From an uncultured Pseudomonadota bacterium (GTDB lineage Bacteria; Vulcanimicrobiota; Vulcanimicrobiia; Eremiobacterales; Eremiobacteraceae), in contig CAVTNB010000003.1 in assembly GCA_963736005.1 (NCBI GenBank), forward strand, positions 32,001 through 96,000: a stretch of 64,000 nucleotides of DNA, written 5' to 3'. Position numbers and translations under genes: made by a program. This document shows positions 31,326 to 54,145 of the stretch, piece after piece; position 1 is the first letter of the stretch; each line of letters begins with the position of its first letter. A model generated the notes under the pieces. The model searched no databases. It saw nothing but the letters and a program-made list of their open reading frames with translations, and was not told the origin of the DNA.

Positions 31326-31957
31326 GCCGGGCACCGCTTTGCAATCCATCGCAAGACGCCCTCGCGCACGACCTCCTGCTCGACAACATGCAGCCGTACG
31401 AGCGCTGTGGCTTCGTCTTCCTGCGGCGACAATTGCATGGGTTTGCGCGCCAAGACCGGTCCGCGGTCGACGCGCGGTGTAATTTCGATGAGGCTCGCGC
31501 CCGTGCAGGGTACTCGGGCCTCCAGGGCATCGCGCAATGCTCGGGCGCCGCGAAATGCCGGCGTCAGCGTGCCATCGGGAAAGCGCACCGTGTCGGCCGC
31601 TGGATCTTCTGGCAAATAAGCCGGATGCAGATTGAGGACGCCCTCGAACCCGGCGGTGAGAAATTCCGGCGCAAGCACGTGCATCCAGCCGAGCAGCAAG
31701 ACCAATCGCGATCCGCTCGTTCGGATCACTGATGCGAGACGAACGGCATACGCGGCTCGATCTTCTTTCTGGCGGTCGAAGATTGCGACTGATGTGGGAA
31801 TCCCAGCGCGAGTGGCGCGCTCGAGCGCAAGAGCATCGGCATTGTTTGAGACGACCAGCCGGATGTCGAGCGGCAACAATCCGGCACGCGCCGCATCGAT
31901 AACGGCCTGCAGATTTGTGCCGCTCCCGGAGGCCAAGATTGCCGTCGCTGTTGGCAT
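31322..31957 (-). CDS. purN: Phosphoribosylglycinamide formyltransferase
   Basis: ASGSGTNLQAVID, LLGWMHVL, NLHPAYLP, VDRGPV; directly downstream of purM. Confidence 0.88.
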   Translation of the reverse strand: MPTATAILASGSGTNLQAVIDAARAGLLPLDIRLVVSNNADALALERATRAGIPTSVAIFDRQKEDRAAYAVRLASVIRTSGSRLVLLLGWMHVLAPEFLTAGFEGVLNLHPAYLPEDPAADTVRFPDGTLTPAFRGARALRDALEARVPCTGASLIEITPRVDRGPVLARKPMQLSPQEDEATALVRLHVVEQEVVREGVLRWIAKRCPA

Positions 31958-31958
31958 G

Positions 31959-33023
31959 CTAGGCGCCACCGACAATCACGCTGGGGCCGCATTGATGGCG
32001 TGGCTCGACTTCACCGACGATGGCCGCAGCTCCAACGGCTCCGTTGATTGGTTGCGCTGCTAGCGTCTCGTTTGCTGTCCTCACAGCACGTTGCGCATCC
32101 TGCGGCGACACAACCAGACAGAATCCAACCCCCATATTCAGCGTGCGGTATGCTTCATCTAAGGAAAGCCGCGCTTCGCGTGCGACCAGCGCCACGACAG
32201 GTGGCACCCGCCAGCTCGCCGCGTCGAAGCGAGCCGCCAGTTGATCGGGCAGCGCGCGCGCAACATTGTCGATCAAACCGCCCCCGGTGATATGGGCCAT
32301 GCTCTTTATCGTGACGCCGGACTGTTGAACCGCGCGTACGACTTGCAAATAGCTCGGGTGTATGGCAAGGAGTGCATCGCCAATAGTTGTTGCGCCACCC
32401 TTCGCAACTGGTTCGCTCCATCGTGCTTGCGCGAGCACTTTGCGCGCCAGCGAATAGCCGTTGGTATGGAGCCCATTGGCCGGCAAACCGACGATCGCAT
32501 CTCCAGCGCTGACGCTGGCCAGATCCAGCATGTCGCGCCGCTCGAGCGCGCCGACGATCGTCCCCGCAAGATCGAAAAGCGGTGGAGTATAGACGCCCGG
32601 CATCTCGGCCGTCTCGCCACCGAGGAGCGCCATGCCATTCTCTCGACACGCGTTTGCGATACCGCCCACGATTGCTTCCGCGGCGTCAGCGTCAAGTTTT
32701 CCCATCGCAAGGTAATCCAAAAAAAACAAGGGCTGTGCGTTCGAGCAGAGCAGATCGTTGATGCAGTGATTAACGAGATCGGCTCCGATGCCCGAATAGC
32801 GTCCAAGAGTTGCCGCAACGATGACCTTGGTACCGACGCCATCGGTGCTAGCCACCAGCACCGGCTGGCGAAACCCTTCCAGCGAAAAACTTCCGCTGAA
32901 GCCACCGATGCCTCGGAGCACCCGCGGGTCGGCGTGCTGGTCGAGAATCGACTGATAACGCGCGACCGTTTGGTTTGCAGCGTCGATGTCGACGCCCGCA
33001 GCGCGGTAAGCATCCTCCTTCAT
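31959..33023 (-). CDS. purM: AIR synthetase
   Basis: YRAAGVDI, STDGVGTK, PLFFLDY, GGETAEMP, GLHTNGYSL, AHITGGG, TLNMGVG. Confidence 0.96.
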   Translation of the reverse strand: MKEDAYRAAGVDIDAANQTVARYQSILDQHADPRVLRGIGGFSGSFSLEGFRQPVLVASTDGVGTKVIVAATLGRYSGIGADLVNHCINDLLCSNAQPLFFLDYLAMGKLDADAAEAIVGGIANACRENGMALLGGETAEMPGVYTPPLFDLAGTIVGALERRDMLDLASVSAGDAIVGLPANGLHTNGYSLARKVLAQARWSEPVAKGGATTIGDALLAIHPSYLQVVRAVQQSGVTIKSMAHITGGGLIDNVARALPDQLAARFDAASWRVPPVVALVAREARLSLDEAYRTLNMGVGFCLVVSPQDAQRAVRTANETLAAQPINGAVGAAAIVGEVEPRHQCGPSVIVGGA

Positions 33024-33155
33024 AATATATTGCGTCGTTTGTCGCTCGGGTTGGCCCTCCCTATGCACGTGCCAAGGTCGCTTTGTCGGCTTTGTATAAT
33101 TGATACCGTCACGTCGTTCATGGAGCATCGAACCTTTCGGTTCGGGAGATACCTA

Positions 33156-34780: not shown

Positions 34781-35347
34781 TCACCGCGTCAGTGTCAGCG
34801 TATGCTGCAGTTGGAACTTTGCTTCCCCGTTTTCGGGAATCGTGACGTCCGTCTTGCTGTTGAGCCCGTAGAGAACGCCGGCGCTCAGGCCAAGCGCACC
34901 CCCAACGTTGGTCCCCAGCCATTTGCCGAGGATGTTGCCCGCGATCATGCCCCCCAACGCTTCAAGCGCAACGGTTCCGACATTGTTTTTCTTATTCTCT
35001 TCGACGGAGATCAGATTGGCGTAAATAATGCTCGACGCTCCATTACTCAGGGCGATCTTGTCGATCATAAAACTCAACTCTGGTTTCGTGCCCTGACCAG
35101 CCTTGCGCGCATTCACAACTCTCGCGTATAACTTGGCGCTAGCGAACGCGGAGTCGCCATTCGGATACGGCGAGCGCACCGTAAACGAAAAAGTCTGACC
35201 CTGGTATGCGTTCTTCGAACTAATCGAATTGTTTGACGTTGCATAGATATAGGCGCCGGCGGGCACGGTGATTGTTCTAGCAAGGGCCGTTACCGGGGCG
35301 AGCAGGCACACGATCAGGACCCATGGTGCGAGATGCTTGATGTGCAT
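34781..35347 (-). CDS. Secreted hypothetical protein with a glycine-zipper segment
   Basis: GAGGAG RBS, signal peptide, VPAG...ISSKNA..GQ.F beta-domain, GGMIAGNILGKWLG..VGGALG. Confidence 0.75.
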   Translation of the reverse strand: MHIKHLAPWVLIVCLLAPVTALARTITVPAGAYIYATSNNSISSKNAYQGQTFSFTVRSPYPNGDSAFASAKLYARVVNARKAGQGTKPELSFMIDKIALSNGASSIIYANLISVEENKKNNVGTVALEALGGMIAGNILGKWLGTNVGGALGLSAGVLYGLNSKTDVTIPENGEAKFQLQHTLTLTR

Positions 35348-35400: not shown

Positions 35401-36861
35401 CTAGTGGGGGACGGCTTGCGGTTCGCGTACTTTCCCGGTCAGCTCTTCATGGATGCCCACAGGATAATGACCGGTGAAACAACCCATGCAAAAATCGCTC
35501 CTGGGACGACCCGTCGCTTCGACAAGAGCATCTTCGCTCAGGTAGCCGAGAGAGTCGGCATTGATCGCCTGTTGAATCTCGGGAACGGTGAAGTTGGCGG
35601 CAATCAACTGCTCGTACGTAGCGGTATCAACACCCAAGAAGCACGGGTGCCGCATGGGCGGACACGTCAAACGCACGTGCACCTCTGAAGCACCAGCGCG
35701 TCGGAGCATGGCAACCAACTGGCGTGTGGTCGTGCCGCGGACAATTGAATCATCGACGAGCACGATCCGCTTGCCCCGAAGATTGGCCACCAGCGGATTG
35801 AATTTGAGCTTGACCCCCTGCGCACGCATGCTCTGATCCGGCGCAATGAACGTCCGCCCAATGTAACGGTTCTTCATGAGGCCTTCGATATATGGCAATC
35901 CGGATTCGTCAGCATACCCGATGGCGGCTGCCGTGGCGCTGTCCGGAACGCCGATGACGACATCGGCGGCAACGGGGCACTCGCGCGCAATGGCGCGGCC
36001 CATCCGGTAGCGGGCGAGATAGAGCTCCTGACCAGCATACATCGTGTCGGGCCGAGAGAAATAGATATATTCAAAGATGCAATTGGCAGGTTTGTACTCT
36101 GTCTCAACCTTCCGCGAGCGCATACCGCGCTCGTCGACAATGATGATTTCCCCGGGCTCGACCTCGCGCACAAACTCCGCACCCACGGTGTTGAGCGCGC
36201 ATGATTCAGACGCGATCATCCAACCCTCGCCGTAACGGCCGACGCACAGTGGCCGGACGCCCCACGGATCGCGGAATCCGAACAACTGCTGTTCGGTTGC
36301 CAAGACAATGGAAAAGGCCCCGATGCACCGCCGCATGATGGCTGCGATTCGCTCTTCCATGTCGCCGTGGTCCATTGCAGCGATCAGCTTCGCGAGAACA
36401 TCCGAGTCAGAGTCTGCTGCCTCGGAGATTTCTGGCGCGAGCTGGCGGCGAAGCGCTTCAGTGTTGACGAGATTCCCGTTGTGGGCAAGCGCAAAGGCCC
36501 CGAGGGCGCTTGTCGCAAGCAAAGGCTGCGCGTTGTACACGACGGACGAGCCGGTCGTAGAATAGCGGGTATGGCCAACTGACAAGTACCCGGGCAGGCC
36601 CGCCAGAATTTCTTCGGTGAAAATCTGCGACAAGAGACCCATCTGTTTGTGGACGCGCAAGTCCCTGCCATCGGATACAGCAATGCCGGCGCTTTCCTGA
36701 CCGCGGTGCTGGAGAGCGTACAATGCGAAGTAGGTTGGGCGAGCGACATCCTCGCCCGGCGCAAAGATGCCACACACGCCGCACGCGTCGTGTACGGCGT
36801 CCTCACTGCCGCTTGGCTTTGGGATGTATGGTTGGTGCACGTCCCGCTCGAGCTCTCCCAT
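35401..36861 (-). CDS. purF: Amidophosphoribosyltransferase
   Basis: Propeptide then CGVCG, LQHRGQESAG, GHTRYST, HNGNL, VDDSIVRGTT, Fe-S Cys (CIFE, CFLG, CMGC). Confidence 0.97.
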   Translation of the reverse strand: MGELERDVHQPYIPKPSGSEDAVHDACGVCGIFAPGEDVARPTYFALYALQHRGQESAGIAVSDGRDLRVHKQMGLLSQIFTEEILAGLPGYLSVGHTRYSTTGSSVVYNAQPLLATSALGAFALAHNGNLVNTEALRRQLAPEISEAADSDSDVLAKLIAAMDHGDMEERIAAIMRRCIGAFSIVLATEQQLFGFRDPWGVRPLCVGRYGEGWMIASESCALNTVGAEFVREVEPGEIIIVDERGMRSRKVETEYKPANCIFEYIYFSRPDTMYAGQELYLARYRMGRAIARECPVAADVVIGVPDSATAAAIGYADESGLPYIEGLMKNRYIGRTFIAPDQSMRAQGVKLKFNPLVANLRGKRIVLVDDSIVRGTTTRQLVAMLRRAGASEVHVRLTCPPMRHPCFLGVDTATYEQLIAANFTVPEIQQAINADSLGYLSEDALVEATGRPRSDFCMGCFTGHYPVGIHEELTGKVREPQAVPH

Positions 36862-36892: not shown

Positions 36893-38185
36893 TCAACGAA
36901 CCGCCGCCGCCGCGTGTTCGCCGATGTCGCAACGGTAGCGAAGCGAGAGGCCGGGCGGCAAACCGGTGATGTACCGCTCGACGCTTGCGTAGGCTCGCTT
37001 GCGAGCGTCGGCCATCTCATCGCCGAGCGCGCAAACGGTGAGGACACGGCCTCCGGATGCGTTGACCGATCTTGCGATCAGTGTCGAACCACCCCAAAAA
37101 GCCACGACATCGTCCGTCGGAGGCTCAAAGGGCGGCAACCCGTCCACCGGGTCGGATCGCTGTGGATAGTTCTGTGAGCAAAGCACGACCCCCACGCAGG
37201 CGCGCGACGAGAATTTCGGGGGCTCGCAGTCCGTCAAGCTCCCATTCGCTGCCGCACGCAGCAGGTCGGAGAAATTACCCTCGAGGCGCGGGAGGACAAC
37301 CTCGGTTTCCGGGTCGCCAAACCGTGCGTTGAACTCAAGCAGCATGGGCCCGCGCTGCGTCATCATCAATCCGGCGTAGAGGCAACCGCGGTAGTCGATG
37401 CCTTCGCTTTTGAGGCCAAGGAGCGTGGGCTCCAAGACCCTTTGGCGCACGAGTTCGAGCTTGGCTGGGTCGAGTACGTCGTCAGCGGGCGAGTACGCCC
37501 CCATGCCGCCTGTATTGGGTCCACTGTCGCCATCGTTGGCGCGCTTGTAGTCGCACGCACCGGCAAGCACGTAATACTGCTGGCCGTCCAGTACCGCCAT
37601 AACGGAGACTTCGCGACCTTCCAGCAGCTCTTCGATGACGATCGTCGTGCCGCCACCGGGAAGCTTGCGTTCGCCGTACCACCGAGCCAACACAACGCGG
37701 GCATCGTCCGCATTCGCGCAGACAACGACTCCCTTTCCAGCAGCGAGACCGTCTGCTTTCAACACAACGCCCTTTGGAAAATGTGCTAGCGCTCGTTCCG
37801 CTTGCTTGAGGTCGTGTGCTTCGCGGTGCCGCGCCGTGGGTACGCCGTGACGATCCATGAACTGCTTCGCATATGCCTTGCTCGTTTCAAGACGCGCGCC
37901 GGCGCTGTTTGGGCCAAAAACCGAAATGCCAGCTCCACGGAGCGCATCTCCAACTCCCGCGGCGAGTGCCGCCTCGGGACCGATGACTGCAAGATCGATC
38001 TGCTCGCGCAGCGCGCGTTCGACCAGCTCGAGCCTCGAGGTGGCCGCAATTGGCCAATTCGTGCCGAGCAGGGCGGTGCCGGCATTCCCGGGCGCTGCGA
38101 AAATCTGGTCGATGCTCTTTGATGCGGCGAGCTTCCAGACGAGCGCATGCTCTCTCGCTCCAGAGCCAACAACGAGCGCCTTCAT
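36893..38185 (-). CDS. purD: Phosphoribosylamine--glycine ligase
   Basis: VGSGAREHAL, KADGLAAGKGV, GPNTGGMG, EFNARFGDPE. Confidence 0.97.
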   Translation of the reverse strand: MKALVVGSGAREHALVWKLAASKSIDQIFAAPGNAGTALLGTNWPIAATSRLELVERALREQIDLAVIGPEAALAAGVGDALRGAGISVFGPNSAGARLETSKAYAKQFMDRHGVPTARHREAHDLKQAERALAHFPKGVVLKADGLAAGKGVVVCANADDARVVLARWYGERKLPGGGTTIVIEELLEGREVSVMAVLDGQQYYVLAGACDYKRANDGDSGPNTGGMGAYSPADDVLDPAKLELVRQRVLEPTLLGLKSEGIDYRGCLYAGLMMTQRGPMLLEFNARFGDPETEVVLPRLEGNFSDLLRAAANGSLTDCEPPKFSSRACVGVVLCSQNYPQRSDPVDGLPPFEPPTDDVVAFWGGSTLIARSVNASGGRVLTVCALGDEMADARKRAYASVERYITGLPPGLSLRYRCDIGEHAAAAVR

Positions 38186-39732
38186 TCCCATTCGATGGTT
38201 GCGGGCGGCTTGCTCGTAATGTCGTACACCACTCGGTTGATTTCGGGAATCTCGTTGACGATGCGCGTCGAAATTTTCGCCAGCACCTCGGGGGCGAGGC
38301 GCGACCAGTCCGCGGTCATCCCGTCATCGCTTGCCACGGCGCGTATGGCGACCATGTTGCCGTAGGTCCGAAAATCACCCATGACTCCGACGCTGCGCAG
38401 CGGCGTGAGGACGGCGAAATATTGCCAAGGCTGCTCGGGTCCCCCGCGCTCGATTTCTTCGCGCGCGATGGCGTCGGCTCGTCGCAGCACGGATAGTCTC
38501 TGTTCGTCGACAGCCCCGAGAATGCGCACGGCCAGTCCAGGACCGGGAAACGGCTGTCTCTTCACGACGTGGTTGGGCAAACCAAGCTCGAGCCCCAGGC
38601 GGCGAACTTCATCCTTAAAGAGGAGCCGTAATGGTTCGATCAGCTTCAAGTTCATGATGTCCGGCAGTCCGCCCACGTTGTGATGCGTTTTTATCTTCGC
38701 CCCTCCTTTACTGAGCGGCGTCTTACTCTCGATCACATCTGGGTACAACGTGCCTTGCACTAAAAAGTCAACGCCTGGAATTTGCTTTGCCTGCTCTTCG
38801 AAGACCGCAATGAATTCGCGCCCGATGATGACCCGCTTCTCTTCTGGATCTTCAATGCCGGTGAGCTTATCGAGAAACCGTTGACTCGCATCGACGGCGA
38901 TCAAGTTGAGGTGCAACACGCCGCGGAATGCCGAAATAACTTGCTCGGCTTCTCCCTGTCGCAGGAGGCCGTGGTCCACGAAGATGCAGGTGAGCCGATC
39001 GCCGATCGCCCGTGCTACAAGCGTTGCCGCAACGGCGCTGTCGACCCCTCCGGAAAGGGCGCAGATCGCTCTTGCGGTGCCAAGCTGCGCGCGGATCTCT
39101 TCCACCGCAGCGTCGACGAAGGATGTCATCTCCCACTGCTGGTGCAAACCGGCGATCTTGCGCAGGAAATTTCGCAAGATTGTGCGCCCGTGTTCCGTGT
39201 GCTGCACTTCGGGGTGGAATTGCACGCCGTAGCGCTGCGTCTCGGGATCCCCGAACGCCGCCAGTGCACACGTCGGCGTGTGGGCAAGCTTGATGAAGCC
39301 CTTCGGCATTTCTGTGACCGTGTCGCCGTGGCTCATCCACACGAGAAACTGACTGGGCACGTCTAAGAACAGCAACGATTGGGCGGCATCCACCGTGAGC
39401 TCCGCGCGTCCATACTCCCGGATCGCTCCTGGTACGACTTGCCCCTTGCATGCGTAGGCGAGCTCCTGCATGCCGTAGCAAATGCCAAGAATGGGCTTGT
39501 CCGACTCCAAGATCTGCGGATGGATGTGCGGCGCACCCGACTCCAGGACGCTTTGGGGCCCACCCGTCAGGATGAAGGCGGACGGTTTGCTCCTCGCGAT
39601 TTCATTCCAGGGCGTGTCGTAAGAAAAGATTTCGCAGTAGACGCGCTCCTCGCGAACGCGACGGGCGATGAGTTGCGCGTATTGCGCCCCAAAATCGATG
39701 ATGGCAACCATCTCTGACGGTTGGTTTTTCAC
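38182..39732 (-). CDS. guaA: GMP synthase (glutamine-hydrolysing)
   Basis: DFGAQY, GICYGMQ, QFHPEV, LSGGVDS, IKTHHNVGG, KPPATIEWE. Confidence 0.98.
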   Translation of the reverse strand: MKNQPSEMVAIIDFGAQYAQLIARRVREERVYCEIFSYDTPWNEIARSKPSAFILTGGPQSVLESGAPHIHPQILESDKPILGICYGMQELAYACKGQVVPGAIREYGRAELTVDAAQSLLFLDVPSQFLVWMSHGDTVTEMPKGFIKLAHTPTCALAAFGDPETQRYGVQFHPEVQHTEHGRTILRNFLRKIAGLHQQWEMTSFVDAAVEEIRAQLGTARAICALSGGVDSAVAATLVARAIGDRLTCIFVDHGLLRQGEAEQVISAFRGVLHLNLIAVDASQRFLDKLTGIEDPEEKRVIIGREFIAVFEEQAKQIPGVDFLVQGTLYPDVIESKTPLSKGGAKIKTHHNVGGLPDIMNLKLIEPLRLLFKDEVRRLGLELGLPNHVVKRQPFPGPGLAVRILGAVDEQRLSVLRRADAIAREEIERGGPEQPWQYFAVLTPLRSVGVMGDFRTYGNMVAIRAVASDDGMTADWSRLAPEVLAKISTRIVNEIPEINRVVYDITSKPPATIEWE

Positions 39733-40868
39733 GTACAGACCTCCGCGAGCCGCCCACGATCGCGGGCCATGACGACCTCCTTTGCGATGCGTTCGCCAAC
39801 CGACATTTCCTTACCCCAACGATACGCCGAATACGGCGTGTACTTCGTTCCCGGCGATCCGGGAATGCGTAAGCTAACATCGTAGACGACGAACGACTTC
39901 GGCGGCCCGGGCGCGATGACGCACTGCAGCGCAAAAGGACCGATAATTCCTGGTGGGCTTTGGGAGCGCGCTGCCTTCACAAATCGCTCTCCCATGTCAA
40001 AGGCCTGTTCAAGCATCGATTCCGTGATCGTTGCCGCGATGTGGCCGGCCTCTTCCATCGATGCGGCAAAGGCCGCTCCCAGCGGCGCTTGATCGATCGC
40101 CAGCAGCGAGCGGATTCCGTCGATATTGGTTTGGCGCCGCGTGTCAGTTCCCAAGAGTTCGAGCTCCCCCAACACCGGCGACCAAAAGAAATTGAGGTTG
40201 ACCGTCGGACCCAAGACGTATTCCTCAAAGACGGCCTCGGCCAGTCCTTCTTGTGTGACGATGCCTGAAGCAAGATAGTGCGCTGCACGCTTTCGATACT
40301 GCTCGGGATTCGCGGCCAGAAAGAATGCGCGCTCATACTTTACCTTGGCATGCTGCGCCTTGATGAGGGTGAGACCGTCGATATCGTCTGGTCCTACGAG
40401 CCGCCGCGGATAGCGAATCCCTGCTGCGTCGAGCAGCTTGTACTGATTGTTCGCTTCGTCGCGCTCCTCGGCACGCAGCAAGCGACGCGATCCGAACATG
40501 GGGACCAGCATGGCCCGCTCGATCTCGTCATAGGAGTGCCGCTCTCGCGCGTACACTTCAAACGCACGATTCGGCACAAAAATCGCGTTGCGCTCGAGCA
40601 TGGCACGCTGACTCTCGTTGTTGATGACGTCCGCGAAGTGATCGACCATGATCACTTCATCGACGCATCCGGTGCCGTCCTCGCGGGTGCGATAAGCGAC
40701 TGTGTAGGTCTTCTCGCGGCGAGGCGCCGCAAACACGAGCGTGCGCAGGCCTTCGCGCTTGGCGCCCAAGCAGACGTCCAGCGCTGAATGACTCCCGATG
40801 CACGTCAGGGTGAGGCGGCGAGTATCGTACGAAGCGAGGGCGGCGCTGGGAGACGTCGCCTCGCCCAT
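39729..40868 (-). CDS. PurP-like ATP-grasp protein (DUF1246/DUF1297), divergent paralog
   Basis: IGSHSALDV..GAK.EG, VPNRAF, ERAFF, DTRRQTNIDG, EAGH, PPGIIGPFALQ, MSVGERIAKEV. Confidence 0.85.
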   Translation of the reverse strand: MGEATSPSAALASYDTRRLTLTCIGSHSALDVCLGAKREGLRTLVFAAPRREKTYTVAYRTREDGTGCVDEVIMVDHFADVINNESQRAMLERNAIFVPNRAFEVYARERHSYDEIERAMLVPMFGSRRLLRAEERDEANNQYKLLDAAGIRYPRRLVGPDDIDGLTLIKAQHAKVKYERAFFLAANPEQYRKRAAHYLASGIVTQEGLAEAVFEEYVLGPTVNLNFFWSPVLGELELLGTDTRRQTNIDGIRSLLAIDQAPLGAAFAASMEEAGHIAATITESMLEQAFDMGERFVKAARSQSPPGIIGPFALQCVIAPGPPKSFVVYDVSLRIPGSPGTKYTPYSAYRWGKEMSVGERIAKEVVMARDRGRLAEVCT

Positions 40869-41983
40869 CAGTTTGCGGGAACCCCGGGGCCAGGTACGGC
40901 GACCGACTCTCCGTTGTGCGCCGAGGATACGTCAAAGGACAATCGGCTCGCCCGGTCGAGGACGAGCTCGAGACTGTTCGAGAGCAGCGCGTTCTTGATC
41001 TCGCGTGCGATGCGCCGCCCGGTTGACATCGGTTCGTCATAGTTGAGATACGAATAGGGAGAGCCGTCAATGAAAAGGTTGGTGCCCGCAACGATGCGCG
41101 CGGAGATCTCCATAAGGAAGAATTCGGACTCCGACGTCACGATGGTCTCCAGGCAAAACGCGCCAAACAAACCGCGATCTGGACAGATCTCACGGCTCAC
41201 GCGCACGACGGCCTCGCCCATGTCGAATGCTTCCGCGAGGAGCGACTCCCGCAAGCTAATGGGTTGGTTGCCGATGACGACATAGGATGGCGAGATATCC
41301 CAGCCTTCCTGATCCGCGAGCGGAATGCGCCCCAGTGAATCTACGTTGCTTTCGTAACGGCGATCCATCGACATGATTTCGAGTTTGCCGGTCAGCGGCG
41401 AATAAAAGTAATGAATGTAGACGGGAACGCCGAGCACGTATTCTTGCATGATGTAGCGCTGCTCGACCAGGTGGGAGGCGCGCGCCGTAAAGTCCTCGGG
41501 GTTTTTGACAAAAAGATATCCCTTGCCGCCGTGCGCCCCATACAGTTTGACGATAACTGGGCGGTCGATCTCGCTCGCTTTCGTAAACTGCCGCGGCATC
41601 TTGAGGCCCGCCTTGGTGAGCCATTGGCGTTGGCGCATGCGATCGGCTTCCCAATCAAGCACCGCCTTGTTGCCGAAGTAGGGTGTCGTCATCCGCTTGT
41701 GCTCTTCCATTGAGAGATACGCCACGAAAGAGCCATGGGGGACGAGAATGACTTTGCGGCGATTGAGTTCTTGCTCGAGCTTGGGAAAATCGCCGTACCG
41801 GGGAATCACGATAACCTCGTCAACGAACGCGAAGCTTGAATACAACCGTTCGTTGAGTGGCGTCACCACGGCAAGCGTATGAAAGCCTTCGTCCTTGGCG
41901 CCCTTGAGGATTTGCAGCGCCGAGTGGCTGCCCAAGGTGGCGACAGTGAAGAGCGACGGCGGGTGCGTCGACTTGCGCTTCAT
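40868..41983 (-). CDS. purP: Formate--AICAR ligase (FAICAR synthetase), archaeal type
   Basis: ATLGSHSALQILKGAKDEGF, VPHGSFVAY, HYFYSPL, DRRYESN, LRESLL, EISARIVAGTN, MSTGRRIAREIK. ATG at 41983. Confidence 0.9.
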   Translation of the reverse strand: MKRKSTHPPSLFTVATLGSHSALQILKGAKDEGFHTLAVVTPLNERLYSSFAFVDEVIVIPRYGDFPKLEQELNRRKVILVPHGSFVAYLSMEEHKRMTTPYFGNKAVLDWEADRMRQRQWLTKAGLKMPRQFTKASEIDRPVIVKLYGAHGGKGYLFVKNPEDFTARASHLVEQRYIMQEYVLGVPVYIHYFYSPLTGKLEIMSMDRRYESNVDSLGRIPLADQEGWDISPSYVVIGNQPISLRESLLAEAFDMGEAVVRVSREICPDRGLFGAFCLETIVTSESEFFLMEISARIVAGTNLFIDGSPYSYLNYDEPMSTGRRIAREIKNALLSNSLELVLDRASRLSFDVSSAHNGESVAVPGPGVPAN

Positions 41984-42507
41984 TTTCCGCTCTTCGCCGC
42001 GGACGCCGCCGGTTCCCCGACTTGCAGGCTGACGGGGCGGCGGCGAATCTGGAAGCGCTGGGAGACTGGGTTGCACAGCAGCGCTGCACATGCCCATTCG
42101 AGCCGGTCGCGAGCGGCGGAGCCCTTTGCCTCGTAGAGTCTCCAGCCGATGGCTCGCTCTAGCCCGAGCAGCGCAGTCATCCCAAAGGTCGTCACCAAGA
42201 GGTCCTGGAGCGGCCGGTTGTTCTCGTCCCTGTCGCGCACGAGTGCTTCGAACTGCGCGGGCTCGACGTCAGGCGCGTTCTCTGCGGCGTAACTCAGGCG
42301 ATGTTTGTTGGGGTTAAAGATGACTTCGGCATGCGACAGCTCGCTCGCGACCTCATCCGCGCGGGTACCATCCAAAACCTTAAGCAAAATGTGCTCCGAG
42401 CGCTCGACGTTCGTGAGTTCGGTGTAACCCAAGTGGTGAAGAGAGGTCAGCACGGTGAAGGCCGTGTTGTCGGGGATGATAGAGTCGATGGCAACGTCTA
42501 TTCTCAT
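41980..42507 (-). CDS. purS: Tandem two-domain PurS-like protein
   Basis: Two modules of about 80 aa ending in IFNPNKH and CAALLCNPVSQRF (canonical PurS ends C..LLANPV.E.Y). The first module has D....TV...L..LGY..L..V.R. It lies in the purL/purQ cluster, which has no other purS. Confidence 0.6.
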   Translation of the reverse strand: MRIDVAIDSIIPDNTAFTVLTSLHHLGYTELTNVERSEHILLKVLDGTRADEVASELSHAEVIFNPNKHRLSYAAENAPDVEPAQFEALVRDRDENNRPLQDLLVTTFGMTALLGLERAIGWRLYEAKGSAARDRLEWACAALLCNPVSQRFQIRRRPVSLQVGEPAASAAKSGK

Positions 42508-44021
42508 ATCGCTTCCACATAATCCGCCGGTGCCGTTTTATCAGCACCGCGCGGCACTCTCATGCCATCCAAGAAGAGCGTCAGCCCGATCGTCACCACC
42601 AGGTTCGCGATAAATCCATAGAGCGCCGCAAACCCCGGAACAACCAACGAGCCGAGATGCAACGGGTAGATGGAATGGAAACCATTCGATGCCGGCATGT
42701 AGGTCGCGATCGCCATGCCAACCAGCCATCCGCACAGCAGCGCTCGGCGATGGAACCAACGCGTATACATGCCAAAGATGAGTGTGGGAAACGTCTGGAG
42801 GATCCAGCCTCCCGCAAAAAGCTGAAAGTTGATTGCGTATTCGGTGGGCAGGCCGAGCACAAAGATGAGCGCGCCCAATTTCATCACAAGCGAGACAACT
42901 TTGGCATTGGTTGACTGCTGGCGATCGGTGCAGTTCGGGTTGATATATTCGCGATAAATATTGCGGGTGAAGAGGTTTGCCGAGGCAATCGACATGATTG
43001 CCGCCGGCACGAGCGCGCCGATTGCAATGGCTGCAAATCCAAAACCGGCGAACCACGGCGGAAACATTTTCAGGAACAGCTGCGGCACCGCTTCATTGGT
43101 CGTCTCGGGATTGATGCCCGCCGCAATTGCCATGTAACCAAACGTGGCCAGCACTGCCAGTAACAGGCTGTACATGGGCAACGCAATCATGTTGCGCCTG
43201 ATGACCCTCGGTCCAGAGGCGCTTAACACGCCGGTGATGTTGTGCGGGTACATGAAAATCGCTAATGCCGAACCGAGGGCCAGCGTGATGTAGGCGCTGT
43301 ATTCCGAAGGCGGCAAGAGCAGGCCAGTTGGTTTGGGTCTGACGGCCATCGCAGCGCCCGCCGCAGCGAAGATGTGCCCATAGCCTCCAAGCTTCGCTGG
43401 AATAATGATCGCAGCGGCGATGACCGTGATGTAGATGAGGGTGTCCTTTGCGATCGCCACGAGCGCCGGTGCGCGCAAGCCACCGCGGTATGTATACACC
43501 GCGAGGATGACAAAGGCGATGACGATCGGCACATCGCGCAAGATCCCAGTGCCTCCCAAACCCATCGCCTTGATGACGACCTGGATGCCCACGAGCTGGA
43601 GCGCAATGTACGGCATGGTGGCGGCAATGCCCGTGACCGCCACCGCCAGCGACAGGCTGCGGCTGTCATAGCGCTCGCGGGCGAAGTCTGCATAGGTGAT
43701 GTAGCCCCGATTCTTTGCGATGGTCCAAAAGCGCGGCGCAAAGATAAAAACCAGCGGGAAGGCGATCGCCGTGTACGGCAAAGCGTAGAACGCAAGCGCT
43801 CCCGTGCCATAAACGAAACCGGGCACCGCGATGAACGTGTAGGCGGTGTACAGATCGCCGCCGATGAGAAACCAGGAAATGAGCGTGCCGAACTGGCGCC
43901 CTCCAAGCGCCCATTCATGCAACAGATCCAAATTGCCGCGGCGCCAGTACTGACCGAGGAATCCCAAGACCGTGACGAGCCCGAACAACACAACGAAGAC
44001 GACAACTGCCGGCCAGATCAT
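42504..44021 (-). CDS. mctP: Sodium:solute symporter, monocarboxylate uptake permease MctP type
   Basis: LHEWALGGRQFG..ISWFLIGGDLYTAYTFIAVPG, ATMPYIALQLVG, GALVPAAIMSI, ANLFTRNIY. ATG at 44021. Confidence 0.85.
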   Translation of the reverse strand: MIWPAVVVFVVLFGLVTVLGFLGQYWRRGNLDLLHEWALGGRQFGTLISWFLIGGDLYTAYTFIAVPGFVYGTGALAFYALPYTAIAFPLVFIFAPRFWTIAKNRGYITYADFARERYDSRSLSLAVAVTGIAATMPYIALQLVGIQVVIKAMGLGGTGILRDVPIVIAFVILAVYTYRGGLRAPALVAIAKDTLIYITVIAAAIIIPAKLGGYGHIFAAAGAAMAVRPKPTGLLLPPSEYSAYITLALGSALAIFMYPHNITGVLSASGPRVIRRNMIALPMYSLLLAVLATFGYMAIAAGINPETTNEAVPQLFLKMFPPWFAGFGFAAIAIGALVPAAIMSIASANLFTRNIYREYINPNCTDRQQSTNAKVVSLVMKLGALIFVLGLPTEYAINFQLFAGGWILQTFPTLIFGMYTRWFHRRALLCGWLVGMAIATYMPASNGFHSIYPLHLGSLVVPGFAALYGFIANLVVTIGLTLFLDGMRVPRGADKTAPADYVEAI

Positions 44022-44233
44022 TCGCGCCCCGCGTCGTGCGCCAGAATATACACCGCCCAAATGATCAACGCCGTGGCCGCAATCCAGACGAACTGATACC
44101 AATAAAAAAACGGTACGCCGGCTATGGATGGCTCCATCGAATTGTACGAGGGGGCCCACAGCATGACTATATAGGGAACGACGAGCAACCAATACCAGCG
44201 TCGCCTAGCGGCGCCCGATTGTCGCTGCTGCAT
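44018..44233 (-). CDS. DUF3311 small membrane partner of the symporter
   Basis: WLLVVP..MLW.P.YN..EP.IAGVPFFYWYQ..W motif; overlaps the symporter start. Confidence 0.88.
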   Translation of the reverse strand: MQQRQSGAARRRWYWLLVVPYIVMLWAPSYNSMEPSIAGVPFFYWYQFVWIAATALIIWAVYILAHDAGRE

Positions 44234-44282: not shown

Positions 44283-44306
44283 GGCGATTTTCCAATCGCC
44301 CCTACA
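44283..44306 (-). repeat. REP family B overlapping the purQ stop codon
   Basis: ggcgattttccaatcgcccctaca. Confidence 0.8.
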
Positions 44307-45036
44307 TGTTCAAGGCGCGGGCCATGCTTTGAAAGATCAGGTCTGACGTTGAGGTCTTCATCGGGTCGAGCCCACGCAGCGTTGGATCGTCAAAAGCGAG
44401 ATTAAAGTTCCAGGCGACACGTTCGGGATGTGGCATGATCGCAAGGACGTTGCCCGCGGCATTGCAGATGCCAGCTGCTCCGTGCATGGCGCTGTTGGGC
44501 GCCGAACCAACGTAACGAAAAGTGATGCGTTGATCTCGTTCGAGCGCGTCGAAAAGCGCAGGCTCGCCCGTGAAACGACCCTCACCATGTGCCATCGCCA
44601 TCTTCATCCTGATGCCTTTGGGAAGGGCCGCCGTGAGCGCGCAGCGCTCTGGCACCGCGGCAAGCTCGACGTCAAGAATGCGACATTGGAAATGGCCGGA
44701 GGGGAGATTTCGAGCGATCGCGATCGGCCCGAGAAGGCCTGCTTCGGCAAGCACCTGTGCTCCGTTGCAAAGACCCAAGACTACCTTACCGCGGGTTGCT
44801 TCTTCCGCGACGACCGTGACGCTCGGCGATTTCGCTGCAATCGCCCCGGCGCGCACTCGATCTTCGAAAGCGAATCCGCCGGGCAGCACATACCCCGCAA
44901 AGTCCCGCAAATTGCCGGGCGGCTCACTCCAAAGAACGGCGCGAGCGTCGAGTCCCGCAGCCGTGCAAGCATCGACCGTCTCCTCTTCTGAATTGGTGCC
45001 GGGAAAAACCAGCACGGCGATTCGTGGGGCCTTCAC
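44302..45036 (-). CDS. purQ: FGAM synthase subunit PurQ
   Basis: FPGTN, LPGGFAFED, LGLCNGAQ, AHGEG, MPHPER. Confidence 0.95.
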   Translation of the reverse strand: MKAPRIAVLVFPGTNSEEETVDACTAAGLDARAVLWSEPPGNLRDFAGYVLPGGFAFEDRVRAGAIAAKSPSVTVVAEEATRGKVVLGLCNGAQVLAEAGLLGPIAIARNLPSGHFQCRILDVELAAVPERCALTAALPKGIRMKMAMAHGEGRFTGEPALFDALERDQRITFRYVGSAPNSAMHGAAGICNAAGNVLAIMPHPERVAWNFNLAFDDPTLRGLDPMKTSTSDLIFQSMARALNM

Positions 45037-47390
45037 GCGAACAAATCCCGGAGCGGACGCATCCAGCTTTCGGAAAGATCGGCGAGACCGACGCTACACA
45101 GACCCTCGATCGTCAGACTCGTGCCACCCGTGTGTCCGAGCCGGATCGGCGCAGCACCCGAGCCCCGAGCGAGATCCTCGAATCGATCGACCTCCTTGGG
45201 GTCTATCGTAACGACGAAGCCGCCCGATTCGCCGAAGAGCGCCGACGATGCTGGAATGTTCGGGGCCCACTGCTCCAGAGGAAGCAGCGAGGCGCCGATG
45301 CTTCCATTCCCTTCGCCTCCCAAGCACATCTCTGCGACGCACGCGAGCACGCCGCCATCTGAAATGTCGTGCGCTGCGGTGATGCTGCCAATGTGAATGC
45401 CCTTGAGAACGGTGGCGATGTCTGCATTGACTTCGTCGTAGTCGATTGCAGGCAGCGGCCCAGCGTCGCGCAGGTGCAGCACATCGGCTAAGACCGAACC
45501 GCCCAGCCCCGTGTCGCGTGCGCCGAGCAGATACAGATGCTGGTTCGGGAACATGATGTTCATCGTCACGATTTTGCCGACATTCTCGATGCGACCAATG
45601 CAGGCCACGATTGCCGATGGCACGATCGCAGTGCCTGACGCAGAATAGTTGTAAAGGCTGACGTTGCCGCTGATGAAAGGTAATCCATCCGCTGACGCTA
45701 CGGTGATCGCACGTGCCGCTTCTGCCAACCCCAAGACGCCGTCTGCAAGCTCGCGATAGGCAACCGGATCTTCCGGATTGCCGTAGTTGAGGCAATCGGT
45801 CAGGCCGATGGGCAAAGCGCCCACGGCAGCGACGTTGCGAGCCGATTCGACGACCGCGTGCGCTGCCGCCATTTTGGCGGAAATTGCTCCAAAGCGTGCG
45901 TTGCCGTCGACCGAAATTGCAATGGCCAGGGGAGAGCCGCGACGAACGACCAGCACGCCCGCATCCGCATACCCAGGGGGAAGAGCCGTCGCTCCTCGCA
46001 CGACCGAATCGTAGTGCTCGACGAGCGGCCGCCGGCTGCATACGTCTTGGTGAGACAAAACGCGAAGCAGGGTACCGGCAACATCTGAGAGCGGCGGCGG
46101 TGCAACCTGTGCGATCTCCGGCGGCGAAGGCGCAAGCGTCCAGCTAGCCCTGACCGGCTGCGTGAGAACGTCGATTGGCAAGGCACAGATTGAACGGCCG
46201 GCTGCGGTCAGAACGTACCAGGGCTCGCGGGTTACCGTTCCGATGACCGCCGCCCTCGCGTTGGCTGAAACTTCCGGAAGCGTATATCGCTCGTTGTACA
46301 GAGCGAGCAACTCCGTTGTGAACGAAGGCGGTACCGCCCACAACATGCGCTCCTGCGTCTCGGCCATTGCGACCACGAAGGGTGAAAGGCCGGCAAGCGC
46401 TACCGGAATTTTCTCGATGTCAATGCGCGCACCAAAACCGCCGGCGCTACACATCTCCGACGAACTTCCCATGATGCCGCCGGCGCCCAAGTCTTTAAAC
46501 CCCGCCTTGATCCCGCGTTTTGCAATGAGTTCAAACGCGGCATAACTTGCTCGCATGATCACATTCTTGAGAAACGGATCGGGAACTTGGACAGCACTTT
46601 TGTTCGCTTCTGCTTCTTGCGCATCCAGTATCAGCGAAGCGAAAGCGGCGCCCCCAAAGCCGGAGCCGTCGGTCGCCTTCCCAACCAGCACGAGGTCGTA
46701 GCCCTCGCCACAGGAGGGGACTCGGCTGTGAATGATCCGGTCGCGTTCGACGAAGCCAAGCGCGACAACGTTGACCAAGCAATTGTGACTAAAGGACGGG
46801 TGAAAGTACACGTCGCCTGCCAAGTTGGGAACCCCGACGGCATTCCCATAGGCCGCGATGCCATCCACCACACCGGTTGCAACGTAGGCTTGGTGTGAGC
46901 CAGCAACGGGTGGTCCAAAGCGTAATGGGTCAGCGCTTGCGACAACTTTCGCCCCCATGCAGAGCACGTCGCGCAAAACGCCTCCAATCCCGGTTGCTGC
47001 GCCTTCAAAGGGCACGACTTGCGACGGATGGTTATGACTTTCGTGTGCGACGACCACGCCGTATTCCGTGCCGTCAACAATTCCCACGCGCAAAATGCCC
47101 GCGTCTTCCCCAACCGGCACGAGCACATCAACGCCTTGGGTCGGTAATTGGGCCAACAGCGCGCGACTGCTTTTGTACGAGCAATGCTCGCTCCACTGAA
47201 TGGCAAAGGCGTGAGCCTCGGTGCGCGTTGGATTGCGCCCCAATCGCTCTCGAATCGCGCGCAATTCCTGGGGGGTGAGCGCAAGCGCCTCGCGGTCTGC
47301 GAGGCGCTTCAGTTCATCGTCGCTGCTCTCGTCAAGCGGCAGCGGTTGTGCCGCAAGCTCTATCAGGTCTGCCGTGGCAGCAAAGCCCAT
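45033..47390 (-). CDS. purL: FGAM synthase subunit PurL (small type)
   Basis: WSEHCSYKSS, ESHNHPS, GAATGIGG, DLGAGG, ETQERM, DCLNYGNP, SGNVSLYN, HDISDGG. Confidence 0.96.
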   Translation of the reverse strand: MGFAATADLIELAAQPLPLDESSDDELKRLADREALALTPQELRAIRERLGRNPTRTEAHAFAIQWSEHCSYKSSRALLAQLPTQGVDVLVPVGEDAGILRVGIVDGTEYGVVVAHESHNHPSQVVPFEGAATGIGGVLRDVLCMGAKVVASADPLRFGPPVAGSHQAYVATGVVDGIAAYGNAVGVPNLAGDVYFHPSFSHNCLVNVVALGFVERDRIIHSRVPSCGEGYDLVLVGKATDGSGFGGAAFASLILDAQEAEANKSAVQVPDPFLKNVIMRASYAAFELIAKRGIKAGFKDLGAGGIMGSSSEMCSAGGFGARIDIEKIPVALAGLSPFVVAMAETQERMLWAVPPSFTTELLALYNERYTLPEVSANARAAVIGTVTREPWYVLTAAGRSICALPIDVLTQPVRASWTLAPSPPEIAQVAPPPLSDVAGTLLRVLSHQDVCSRRPLVEHYDSVVRGATALPPGYADAGVLVVRRGSPLAIAISVDGNARFGAISAKMAAAHAVVESARNVAAVGALPIGLTDCLNYGNPEDPVAYRELADGVLGLAEAARAITVASADGLPFISGNVSLYNYSASGTAIVPSAIVACIGRIENVGKIVTMNIMFPNQHLYLLGARDTGLGGSVLADVLHLRDAGPLPAIDYDEVNADIATVLKGIHIGSITAAHDISDGGVLACVAEMCLGGEGNGSIGASLLPLEQWAPNIPASSALFGESGGFVVTIDPKEVDRFEDLARGSGAAPIRLGHTGGTSLTIEGLCSVGLADLSESWMRPLRDLFA

Positions 47391-48664
47391 CAGGTCCCCG
47401 CTTTACCACTCCCTGCGGGGGCGTTGAGCTGCGCGTCGGACTCGGTGACGTGCATGCGGTTGCGATACTGCGCAACGACGACTCGACCGTAGAGCACCGA
47501 ATCATCGGAGGCGAGAATTTTCGCAGCGGCAAGTGCAGCGTTTTCGGGCTCGAGGACGACCATGCTTGCGACCCCGCCCGGAAGAGCGAGACTGGAGACC
47601 ACTTCCATGCCGCCCCAGGTCGAACCAAGCACGGGGCAGGCGATGACCGGATTCGCCGTCGCGGCATCGACAAAGGCTGAGAGGGCGTTGCTTCTCCCGG
47701 CGATCGTTATGTAAACCGCCCGGCCGAGCATGTTGTCGATTTGCTGAACTTTTTGCAGCGCGTACAGAGGGGTCTTGTGGGCCGAGGCGACGTGACGGCG
47801 CGCTGGGACTCCCAAATTCTCGAGCGCTTTTGCAATCTTGTCTGCGTGCGCCGCATCCGAAGTCGAACCCATGATGATGCCAACGAAGCCACCGCCCCGC
47901 TTGGAGAATTGTCCGACACGCTCTGCAACTTCTTCGTACTTGGATTTTACGCTGTCGAGATCAGACGCACTCGGGACTGCGATGTTGCGATAGATTTGCT
48001 TGTCGAGCATCAGCGCTTGCTCGCCGGCGGGCCAAATTCGCCACGAGTCGTTGTCGATGACGTCCGCGAGGATAATCTCTGTGCCACCGTCTGCGGTCTT
48101 TGCGCGCCCGAATTCGACTTTGAGGTCGACGAGGAGCACGTTCTGTTGGCGCCAAGCATGTGCGAGGATGTCGAAGATCAGCCGCGCGTAGTCGGACATG
48201 ATGGCGACCTCGGCTTGGGTTGCGATCTTCTCTTCGACGATTTGCTCTGCCGTATACTGAGGATCGTGACGCGAGTCGTCTTTGAAGAAATACTCGACCA
48301 GGCGAGGCGCAAACACCGTGCCCGATTTGACGCCCGGGTTGCGCTTGAGATAGGAGCCTGCTGCGATGCCTCGCACGACGACTTCGATCGGAATCATCTC
48401 GCAGCGGCGCACGATCATCTCGTTTGCGTCTTCATCTTCACCGCCGCTGATGAAGTGCGTCGGCAACCCAGCCGCGTTGAGCAAGCGATAGACGCGGCTC
48501 GCCGTGAGCGCTGCGAGCCGGCCTTTGCCCGCAATGGTATGGCGTTTTGCCCCGTCGCCGGCCGTAATGTTGTCCTGCTGGACCACCACAAGTGCGTCCA
48601 TCTGATCGGGATGTTGGTAGAGTACCTTGGTCTTGCCGCGACCGACCTCAGCGCCTTTGTTCAC
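47390..48664 (-). CDS. purC: Bifunctional SAICAR synthetase / class II AIR carboxylase (PAICS-like PurC-PurE fusion)
   Basis: PurC: GKTK, ITAGDG, CEMIPIE, GSYLKRNPGV, FFKDD, DLKVEFG, ADVIDNDSWRIWP, DKQ. PurE: IMGSTSD, SAHK, AGRSNAL, PVIACP. Confidence 0.92.
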   Translation of the reverse strand: MNKGAEVGRGKTKVLYQHPDQMDALVVVQQDNITAGDGAKRHTIAGKGRLAALTASRVYRLLNAAGLPTHFISGGEDEDANEMIVRRCEMIPIEVVVRGIAAGSYLKRNPGVKSGTVFAPRLVEYFFKDDSRHDPQYTAEQIVEEKIATQAEVAIMSDYARLIFDILAHAWRQQNVLLVDLKVEFGRAKTADGGTEIILADVIDNDSWRIWPAGEQALMLDKQIYRNIAVPSASDLDSVKSKYEEVAERVGQFSKRGGGFVGIIMGSTSDAAHADKIAKALENLGVPARRHVASAHKTPLYALQKVQQIDNMLGRAVYITIAGRSNALSAFVDAATANPVIACPVLGSTWGGMEVVSSLALPGGVASMVVLEPENAALAAAKILASDDSVLYGRVVVAQYRNRMHVTESDAQLNAPAGSGKAGT

Positions 48665-48698: not shown

Positions 48699-48724
48699 GT
48701 AGTCGCGCGAATTTATTCGCGCGC
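48699..48724 (+). repeat. REP family C overlapping the purB 3' end
   Basis: GTAGTCGCGCGAATTTATTCGCGCGC; the purB TAA stop lies in the palindrome loop. Confidence 0.85.
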
Positions 48725-52412: not shown

Positions 52413-52423
52413 TGTCGCTTTCC

Positions 52424-52451
52424 CGCGCGCGAATAAATTCGCGCGACTACA
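52424..52451 (-). repeat. REP family C at the ribH/mtnA junction
   Basis: cgcgcgcgaataaattcgcgcgactaca. Confidence 0.85.
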
Positions 52452-54144: not shown

Positions 54145-54145
54145 G

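Follow-up and report, generated by a model that had tools for sequence, protein, structure and literature searches.

Tandem PurP Genes in a Bacterial Purine Locus

A 64,000-nucleotide stretch of DNA (the window; positions 32,001 to 96,000 of contig CAVTNB010000003.1, assembly GCA_963736005.1) from an uncultured soil bacterium of the Eremiobacteraceae encodes, within a purine biosynthesis supercluster, two tandem ATP-grasp genes of the PurP type. The supercluster lies on the minus strand in the order purB, purC-purE, purL, purQ, a gene for an MctP-type permease, a purS-like gene, PurP-I, PurP-II, guaA, purD and purF; purM and a purN-like gene are located past purF, beyond an aminopeptidase gene on the opposite strand (Table 1). 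The upstream PurP protein is referred to as copy I (P0001) and the downstream one as copy II (P0002). The genome of the window (G000) is 84% complete, with 2.84 Mb spread over 6 contigs. A sequence-only reading of the window had described the two genes as an archaeal-type tandem pair with overlapping stop and start codons, coupled to guaA, and the domain searches agree with this description and with its coordinates. Both proteins consist of PF06849 (DUF1246) and PF06973 (DUF1297), in this order, with scores of 139.4 and 218.9 bits in copy I and 119.9 and 185.7 bits in copy II (cut-offs 25 and 23.8). The stop codon of the purS-like gene overlaps the start of PurP-I (ATGA), that of PurP-I overlaps the start of PurP-II (TGATG), and the stop of PurP-II overlaps a GTG in the guaA frame, an alternative guaA start being the ATG 21 nt downstream. 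The longest open reading frame (ORF) containing copy I extends to 42097.

The two proteins share 31% identity and both match three solved PurP structures, the best match in the Protein Data Bank (PDB) being PF1517 of Pyrococcus furiosus for copy I (2r84, E 2.8e-102) and MJ0136 of Methanocaldococcus jannaschii for copy II (2r7k, E 3e-63). Archaeal PurP-like proteins have been classified in clusters Ia (MJ0136, active alone), Ib (PF1517) and II (PF0421) (Brown et al., 2011; PMC3261824), and the same groups were termed PurP I, II and III, respectively (Cruz et al., 2019; PMC6486802). According to the first of them, His27 and Arg314 (MJ0136 numbering) are always kept, Asn258 is replaced by His throughout cluster II, and the P-loop (K/R)GG(K/R)G (positions 161-165) is two residues longer, Gly-poor and positively charged in cluster II. 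These signature positions were assigned in the window proteins from a HMMER alignment to MJ0136 and from a table of 64 full-length representatives of the family.

The motifs PHGSF, YESN, GAHGGKG, VIGNQP and EISARIVAGTN are found in copy I, and PNRAF, RQTN, HAKVKYERAF, EAGHIAAT and DVSLRIPGSPG in copy II, and thus all those quoted in the sequence-only reading (PHGSF, YESN and SARIVAGTN for the former; PNRAF, RQTN and SLRIPGSPG for the latter) are present. The formyl-contacting His27 and Arg314 occur in both proteins (GSHS; SAR and SLR, respectively). Copy I has Asn at position 258 (Asn239 in its own numbering, in VIGNQP), a residue invariant across the cluster I alignment, and its P-loop HGGKG shows the length and the glycines of cluster I with His, not Lys or Arg, as the first residue. 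This first residue is Q, G, A or L in the 8 other copies I of Eremiobacterota, is also non-basic in several copies from Woesearchaeota/Nanoarchaeota, and is Lys or Arg in 35 of the 43 other loci with a readable loop. Copy II retains the equivalents of His27, Ser266 and Arg314, displays His at the Asn258 position (EAGHIAAT), and its loop HAKVKYERAF contains a 2-residue insertion compared to the ARGGRG of MJ0136, with an invariant Glu-Arg replacing the Gly-rich P-loop. The motifs of the second copy had been presented as peculiar to it; they are instead signatures of cluster II (PurP III) as a whole. At the position of the phosphate-contacting Ser94, copy II has Ala (residue 101, in PNRAF), and Ser (PNRSF) is seen in 119 of the 120 lineage relatives; judged from these relatives, the Ala is a private change of this protein and not a lineage trait.

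Hidden Markov models (HMMs) built from clusters I and II separated every ORF cleanly. The split between the two clusters is the deepest of the family (support 100, starred), copy I being placed inside the cluster I clade (99, starred) and copy II on the opposite side. Neither protein matched the IMP (inosine monophosphate) cyclohydrolase families PF07826 and PF02142. Altogether, the comparison of sequences makes it almost certain that the window encodes a cluster Ib plus cluster II PurP pair. A recent local duplication is ruled out by the 31% identity of the copies and their location on opposite sides of the deepest split, in line with the initial description of the pair as divergent.

The bacterial nature of the host is supported by several lines of evidence. 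Among the 120 relatives of copy II listed at 70-88% identity, those named in the NCBI database are Candidatus Eremiobacteraeota, Eremiobacteraceae or Tumulicola, and the protein Atlas clusters are labelled "Bacteria, commonest Vulcanimicrobiota". Vulcanimicrobiota is a bacterial phylum name in the NCBI taxonomy, which we take to be the current name of Eremiobacterota. According to domain searches the genes around the PurP pair are bacterial in type, and the GC content is even (0.59-0.61) throughout the region. It is hardly credible that the pair is an assembly or binning artefact derived from an archaeal contaminant, or a decaying remnant, since the ends of the PurP genes overlap those of bacterial purS and guaA within an operon of uniform GC, the same pair occurs in single-contig genomes of 3.0-3.5 Mb (G011, G045), and both frames are open with key residues invariant in the 120 relatives. 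Mis-binning may nevertheless happen in records of this family: a metagenome-assembled genome labelled Desulfobacteria (L037) contains a PurP pair near-identical to archaeal copies of the type of anaerobic methanotrophic archaea (ANME)/Methanophagales (branches of about 0.06), which may be a binning error. Desulfobacteria-type bacteria live attached to ANME archaea.

PurP was found in no bacterium among 1,403 complete genomes and was considered an archaeal signature (Cruz et al., 2019). The literature search, which did not extend to the supplements of Cruz et al. (2019) and Brown et al. (2011), retrieved no paper describing a bacterial PurP; databases already annotate the bacterial PurP genes of this lineage automatically.

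Distribution of the Pair and Coexistence With PurH

The occurrence of PurP was examined in 121 sampled genomes of the phylum, among which the class of the window corresponds to families f1, f2 and f3 (52 genomes including G000). Two genes with PF06973 were present in 52/52 genomes of the class, one of each type where they were typed; three matches were detected in one genome, where contig ends interrupt a gene. In the family to which the window belongs, copy II was detected in 28 of 31 genomes (including G121, G132 and G138, flagged as unpublished) and in 18/18 of those of high quality, the three misses being genomes 62-89% complete. The class presumably has a cultured member, Vulcanimicrobium alpinum. 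Outside the class, a single gene was detected in 1 of 19 genomes of family f6, and the 50 remaining genomes of the sample had none. The exception (G082, locus L092) belongs to another class and is 72% complete in 460 contigs; its lone cluster I PurP is Micrarchaeota-like and unrelated to the class copies, a cluster II partner was not found in it, and the gene may reflect contamination or a separate transfer.

The PurP genes are adjacent in f1 and in some f2 and f3 genomes and lie 27-50 kb apart in G043, G061 and G093; both are always kept. In G119 (L090, 8422-14052), PurP-I and PurP-II are separated by a 377-aa ORF of no known family, cydA and cydB. In G093 (L096/L097), about 50 kb separate the two genes, which lie outside a purine context, and PurP-I is again followed by an ORF of no known family (380 aa).

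The genome of the window encodes a full-length PurH (MGS-like and AICARFT domains; NF002049, 539.5 bits vs a cut-off of 402) on another contig (G000:C1), outside the purine supercluster, and the MGS domain was found in this genome only in PurH. This enzyme (PF01808) was present in 52/52 genomes of the class and in 22 of the 69 sampled outside it. Because PurH occurs in all 52 class genomes, the PurP pair is an addition to PurH and not a substitute for it, and there is no missing ring-closure enzyme to explain in this class. Replacement of PurH by the pair is ruled out by the same count. PurO was looked for as a ring-closing partner and was not found in the 84%-complete G000. In many families outside the class neither PurH nor PurP was found, e.g., f6 (0/19, the lone gene of G082 aside), f12 (0/5) and f13 (0/6).

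Regarding one-carbon metabolism, FolD and PurU (401.6 bits vs a cut-off of 223) are present in G000. PurT did not exceed its cut-off in this genome or in any of 61 genomes of the class (0/61; the class tallies of PurT and PurU include the unpublished G132 and G138); matches of 140-192 bits to the PurT profile, in 26 of the 61, are suspected to be PurK. A formate-tetrahydrofolate ligase was likewise not found in the 84%-complete G000. Since neither PurT nor this ligase was found, PurP would be, among the enzymes looked for, the sole user of free formate in purine synthesis. PurU was considered as a general supplier of formate and rejected, as it exceeds the cut-off in 11 of the 61 class genomes and so provides no class-wide link.

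Evolutionary Origin

One genome per species was scanned with an alignment of 7 cluster II sequences, and the best 80 named loci were used for comparison. These included Micrarchaeota, Woesearchaeota, Nanoarchaeota, Altiarchaeota, Methanosarcinales/Methanophagales and Thermoplasmatota, and 8 of the 80 carried bacterial labels (3 Peregrinibacteria/Peribacteria, 1 Patescibacteria, 1 Gracilibacteria, 1 unclassified "bacterium", 1 Spirochaetota on a 1.9 Mb contig and 1 Desulfobacteria). Eremiobacterota were absent from the best 80 (0/80) as the ranking was made against a first sequence of the Micrarchaeota type. A cluster I ORF was found on the same strand beside the cluster II gene in 51 of the 80 loci, many of the others being short contigs. 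The order is II to I in Micrarchaeota, Altiarchaeota and the ANME-type group, and I to II in Woesearchaeota, Nanoarchaeota, the candidate phyla radiation (CPR) loci, L059, L066 and the window.

Both copies were placed in quick IQ-TREE phylogenies, which have no independent root (for cluster II, only Shimodaira-Hasegawa-like approximate likelihood ratio support, SH-aLRT, was computed). In the cluster I tree (56 rows), the 9 rows of Eremiobacterota form one clade (97, starred) inside a clade of 24 rows (99, starred) together with Woesearchaeota, Nanoarchaeota, Peregrinibacteria, L052 and L059. In the cluster II tree (59 rows), the 10 rows of Eremiobacterota also form one clade (100, starred), with a stem of 0.95, inside a clade of 41 rows (95, starred) in which the same archaeal and CPR groups occur. 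Grouping these cluster II copies with the 23 DPANN/CPR rows was not rejected by the approximately unbiased (AU) test (lnL difference 1.78, p-AU 0.485). A point against a joint history of the two genes is that the sister of the Eremiobacterota copies in the free cluster II tree is the Altiarchaeota/ANME group (support 93, unstarred) and not the group of copy I, on a stem that is long.

Based on this evidence, it is very likely that the pair is of horizontal origin. The most likely scenario suggested by the trees is a single transfer of a I-to-II unit, from a DPANN-like archaeon or a shared archaeal/CPR pool, into the ancestor of the class, independently of the CPR clades; its direction and donor we infer. 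This reading is based on the gene order and the non-basic first residue of the P-loop, which are common to the DPANN/CPR clade. The proposal that both genes were acquired together is thus consistent with the monophyly of each copy in the class, the I-to-II order and the AU test, which fall short of proving it, and the phylogeny that had been suggested as a check locates both copies among pairs of DPANN archaea and CPR bacteria.

The pairs of CPR/Patescibacteria (Peregrinibacteria L039, L069 and L077, Patescibacteria L052 and Gracilibacteria L085) consist of the same two paralogs in the same I-to-II order as in the window, with copy I in the same 99-support (starred) clade. In contrast, the Eremiobacterota copies form a clade of their own, not nested inside the CPR clade, in both trees, and they occur in free-living hosts with genomes of 2-4 Mb, class-wide and next to PurH in every genome. 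Judged from these trees, the couple has entered Bacteria a second time, apart from its entry into the CPR lineages.

Comparison With Characterized PurP Proteins

The only PurP with demonstrated FAICAR (5-formamidoimidazole-4-carboxamide ribonucleotide) synthetase activity in the literature available is MJ0136 (PurP I, cluster Ia; PDB 2r7k-2r7n). It belongs to the same fold family as the window proteins and presents the same formyl and phosphate contacts, but it works alone and occurs singly with PurO, and the window proteins score under the equivalog cut-offs built on its function. The nearest solved relative of copy I, end to end, is PF1517 (PurP II, cluster Ib; PDB 2r84-2r87), with which it shares PHGSF, the Gly-rich loop, Asn258 and SARIVAGTN. 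Like copy I, PF1517 is paired with a cluster II gene in its own genome. It differs in being a hyperthermophilic archaeal protein from a genome without PurH, PurO and PurH2, whereas copy I coexists with PurH; copy I has His instead of Lys/Arg at the first position of the P-loop and about 30 extra residues at its C-terminus.

Copy II shares with the archaeal cluster II proteins (PF0421, AF0256) His258, the longer Gly-poor loop, His27, Arg314 and a one-to-one cluster I partner and, with AF0256 of A. fulgidus, the linkage to guaA. Archaeal cluster II proteins have Ser or Thr at the Ser94 position, unlike the Ala of copy II, which is bacterial and sits on the long stem (0.95). No structure or activity of a cluster II protein was reported in the literature examined. 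PurH catalyzes steps 9 and 10 of the same pathway, has an unrelated fold, and depends on folate rather than on formate and ATP.

Proposed Function of the Pair

It can be hypothesized that copies I and II work together as a hetero-oligomer, e.g., a hexamer of one trimer on another, that would act as a formate- and ATP-dependent formyltransferase on AICAR (5-aminoimidazole-4-carboxamide ribonucleotide), producing FAICAR via formyl phosphate. Carbon 2 of the purine ring would in this way be supplied without folate, alongside the AICAR formyltransferase (AICARFT) domain of PurH, the ring then being closed by the IMP cyclohydrolase domain of PurH. That the pair constitutes such a heteromeric FAICAR synthetase is put forward tentatively, as a possibility a little short of probable, both for the reaction and for the need of the two subunits. 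The working-together reading is based on the retention of both genes even when they are apart, the stop/start coupling, the active-site-like invariance of copy II and a weak co-folding signal. The proposed reaction would also fit the metabolic context, in which PurP is the only entry point of free formate into purines that was found and a monocarboxylate permease gene belongs to the operon.

The idea itself is in print for archaea: a heterohexamer of PurP II and PurP III performing step 9 was speculated upon by Cruz et al. (2019), who also reported that both types co-occur in the same 61 archaeal genomes. Neither PF1517 nor PF0421 showed AICAR formyltransferase activity on its own (Brown et al., 2011, citing Zhang 2008), and PF1517 is described as binding both ATP and AICAR, with a weak interface between its trimers (Cruz et al., 2019, citing Zhang 2008). 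These observations also bear on the possibility that the copies are two independent FAICAR-making isozymes used under different conditions. As isozymes would, the two copies share His27 and Arg314, which contact the formyl group, and most of the phosphate contacts; however, isozymes should be lost one at a time, yet they are retained one-to-one in the 61 archaeal genomes and in 52/52 here, each is inactive alone in P. furiosus and their differences in substrate contacts are fixed family-wide, which makes this alternative very improbable.

Co-folding of copies I and II gave a median ipSAE of 0.35 (runs 0.27, 0.35 and 0.46) against 0.00 for the best of 3 controls, with the verdict "weak support"; partner pLDDT values were 82 or higher, and at least 3% of the contacts were common to the runs. 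The mark used is attained by 116 of the 157 solved complexes and by 2 of the 215 mismatches, those at or below 0.60 comprising only 18 of the 157 and both mismatches. The hetero-oligomer proposed in the sequence-only reading therefore gains weak co-folding support, which does not tell a heteromer from a homomer.

Regarding copy II, an alignment of 26 cluster II sequences from archaea and bacteria contained 25 invariant columns, many of them charged. Seventeen active-site-type positions were checked in 120 cluster II proteins of the lineage: Arg100 (Gly93 position), Glu179, Arg180, Glu215, Glu216, Arg244, Gln246, His276, Glu283, Ser284, Gln315, Asp330 and Arg334 were found in 120/120, and His27, Asn99, Ser at the Ser94 position and Lys170 in 119/120. 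By their pattern, the invariant residues of copy II look like an active site. This speaks against a copy II that is non-catalytic or regulatory (a pseudoenzyme, scaffold or sensor), or that acts on a substrate other than AICAR and FAICAR, leaving copy I as the sole purine enzyme of the pair. Such a role would agree with the loss of the Gly-rich ATP loop in all cluster II proteins, with the faster evolution of copy II in the class, with its location in G093, where it adjoins a polysaccharide deacetylase and an M20 peptidase outside a purine context, and with the distinct or absent catalytic activity that Zhang et al. (2008) suggested for PurP III (as cited by Cruz et al., 2019). Conversely, besides the invariant core, copy II is purine-linked, lying next to guaA here as the cluster II gene of A. 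fulgidus adjoins guaA1 (Brown et al., 2011). On balance, the regulatory alternative is unlikely.

Another alternative, which the sequence-only reading had also considered, is that the copies act in sequence, copy I making FAICAR from formate and ATP and copy II closing the ring to IMP, possibly via ATP-dependent activation of the formyl oxygen, as a folate-independent AICAR-to-IMP module parallel to PurH. Copy II keeps the formyl contacts His27 and Arg314, the phosphate contact Ser266 and the ATP-grasp core, its changes affecting precisely the contact to the carboxamide (Asn258 to His) and the residues that precede Ser94. Brown et al. (2011) noted some match between archaea with two purP genes and those without purO/purH2, and raised the ring-closing role as an untested idea. 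PurO occurs in 24 of 25 genomes with a single purP I gene, cluster Ib being always accompanied by cluster II (Cruz et al., 2019, Table 1). However, the phyletic pattern was qualified as "imperfect" (Brown et al., 2011), and a stand-alone copy I would predict an active PF1517, which was reported inactive alone in the same paper. In the class of the window, PurH with its IMP cyclohydrolase (MGS) domain leaves no gap for copy II to fill, so that the motive for assigning ring closure to it has gone and that suggestion is weakened. To our knowledge, no ATP-grasp enzyme performs such a cyclization. Two sequential enzymes thus appear rather unlikely. It is quite doubtful, in particular, that cluster II PurP is an unrecognized ATP-grasp IMP-forming cyclase and clusters Ib and II a complete AICAR-to-IMP module moving between archaea and bacteria as a unit; if true, this would identify the enzyme for step 10 that has long been missing in Crenarchaeota, Thaumarchaeota and Pyrococcus.

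Returning to the heteromeric FAICAR synthetase, several observations weigh against it. In the literature examined, no cluster Ib or II protein has a reported activity, whether singly or in a mixture. Both window proteins score below each of the six cut-offs of the NCBIfam equivalog models of the formate ligase (EC 6.3.4.23), with 384.3 and 247 bits vs 482-603. With PurH in 52/52 genomes, FolD and a PurN-like gene, the folate route looks complete and the pair is formally redundant. Copy II evolves faster within the class (mean identity 67.9% vs 79.8% for copy I, which was higher in 36/36 pairs from 9 genomes), not obviously as expected of an equal catalytic partner; outside the class the identities were 54.3% for I and 60.4% for II (325 pairs), a comparison set aside because the loci were chosen by similarity to a cluster II query. 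The copy II of this genome has Ala at the phosphate-contacting Ser94 position, and the separation of the genes in some genomes fits strict co-translation poorly. The co-folding score lies in a band in which most passes are wrong unless the pairing was likely to begin with and, PurP homohexamers having been solved, the predicted contact may mirror mere likeness to them. A I-II fusion was not found: the search for longer proteins gave one hit, P0303 (an N-terminal cluster II part plus unrelated sequence), a blank that is weak evidence.

Neighboring Genes in the Window

The features of the supercluster are listed in Table 1. An Rfam scan of the window gave no match.

Table 1. Genes of the purine supercluster in the window and the profile matches that identify them.
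Feature	Coordinates	Strand	Evidence
purB	48713..50149	-	PF00206 + PF10397
purC-purE fusion	47390..48664	-	PF01259 residues 8-248, PF00731 261-399; TIGR00081, TIGR01162
purL (small type)	45033..47390	-	PF00586, PF02769, PF18072
purQ	44302..45036	-	PF13507
MctP-type monocarboxylate permease (SSF family), between purQ and purS	42504..44192	-	NF046076, 701.7 bits vs cut-off 625
purS-like gene, 175 aa	41980..42507	-	weak PF02700/PurS matches, residues 2-72 and 126-158
PurP cluster I (cluster Ib / "PurP II" type), P0001, 371 aa from ATG at 41983	40868..41983	-	PF06849 + PF06973; cluster I clade
PurP cluster II ("PurP III" type), P0002, 379 aa	39729..40868	-	PF06849 + PF06973; cluster II clade
guaA (fused GATase + synthetase), directly downstream of PurP-II	38182..39732	-	NF000848, 756.5 bits vs cut-off 400
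purD	36893..38191	-	GARS_N/A/C
purF	35401..36861	-	GATase_6/7 + Pribosyltran
purM	31959..33128	-	AIRS + AIRS_C
purN-like formyltransferase	31322..31975	-	PF00551, 98 bits; TIGR00639, 123.7 bits, under equivalog cut-off 150.1

The MctP-type permease may be an importer of formate and is considered a candidate for this role. The NF046076 alignment begins at residue 62, suggesting that the real start is probably some 60 codons inside the ORF. Among the genomes of the family holding the permease, it lies on the same contig and at most 5 kb from PurP-II in 13 of 21 (2 of the 13, G132 and G138, being unpublished). The purS-like gene has about double the typical length, and relatives carry ORFs of 184-187 aa at the same position.

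PurC (SAICAR synthetase) and PurE (AIR carboxylase) are joined in one protein of 424 aa (minus strand), with the domain order of the eukaryotic bifunctional enzyme, and a fusion of 494 aa occurs likewise in G055. PurK was not found in the 84%-complete G000, the best match scoring 30 bits vs a cut-off of 318.

Directly downstream of purF, a 188-aa ORF (34781-35347, minus strand) has no Pfam or NCBIfam match. The catalytic domain of an M17 leucyl aminopeptidase at 33700-34707 (plus strand) is split, profile positions 1-78 falling in ORF 32241-34385 and 81-310 in ORF 33940-34707, which suggests a frameshift or a sequencing error near 33935. A 459-aa ORF at 51522-52901 (minus strand) combines a lumazine synthase domain (residues 1-149) with an IF-2B family domain (208-458) and adjoins ribBA (52903-54219); it represents either an unusual fusion or a pair of genes taken for a single one.

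Concluding Remarks

The role of the couple formed by PurP proteins of clusters Ib and II has been open since 2008-2011, and bears on how Crenarchaeota and Thaumarchaeota finish purine synthesis. What the window and its relatives add is a free-living, mesophilic bacterial class with both genes in every sampled genome, operon-linked in the window, strongly constrained and beside an intact PurH. The gain in knowledge is incremental rather than categorical. An Eremiobacterota host offers a test system with a natural control, as PurH is present, and with proteins easier to work with than the hyperthermophile ones, and is suited to tell a heteromeric formate ligase from a two-step module or another role of this pair.

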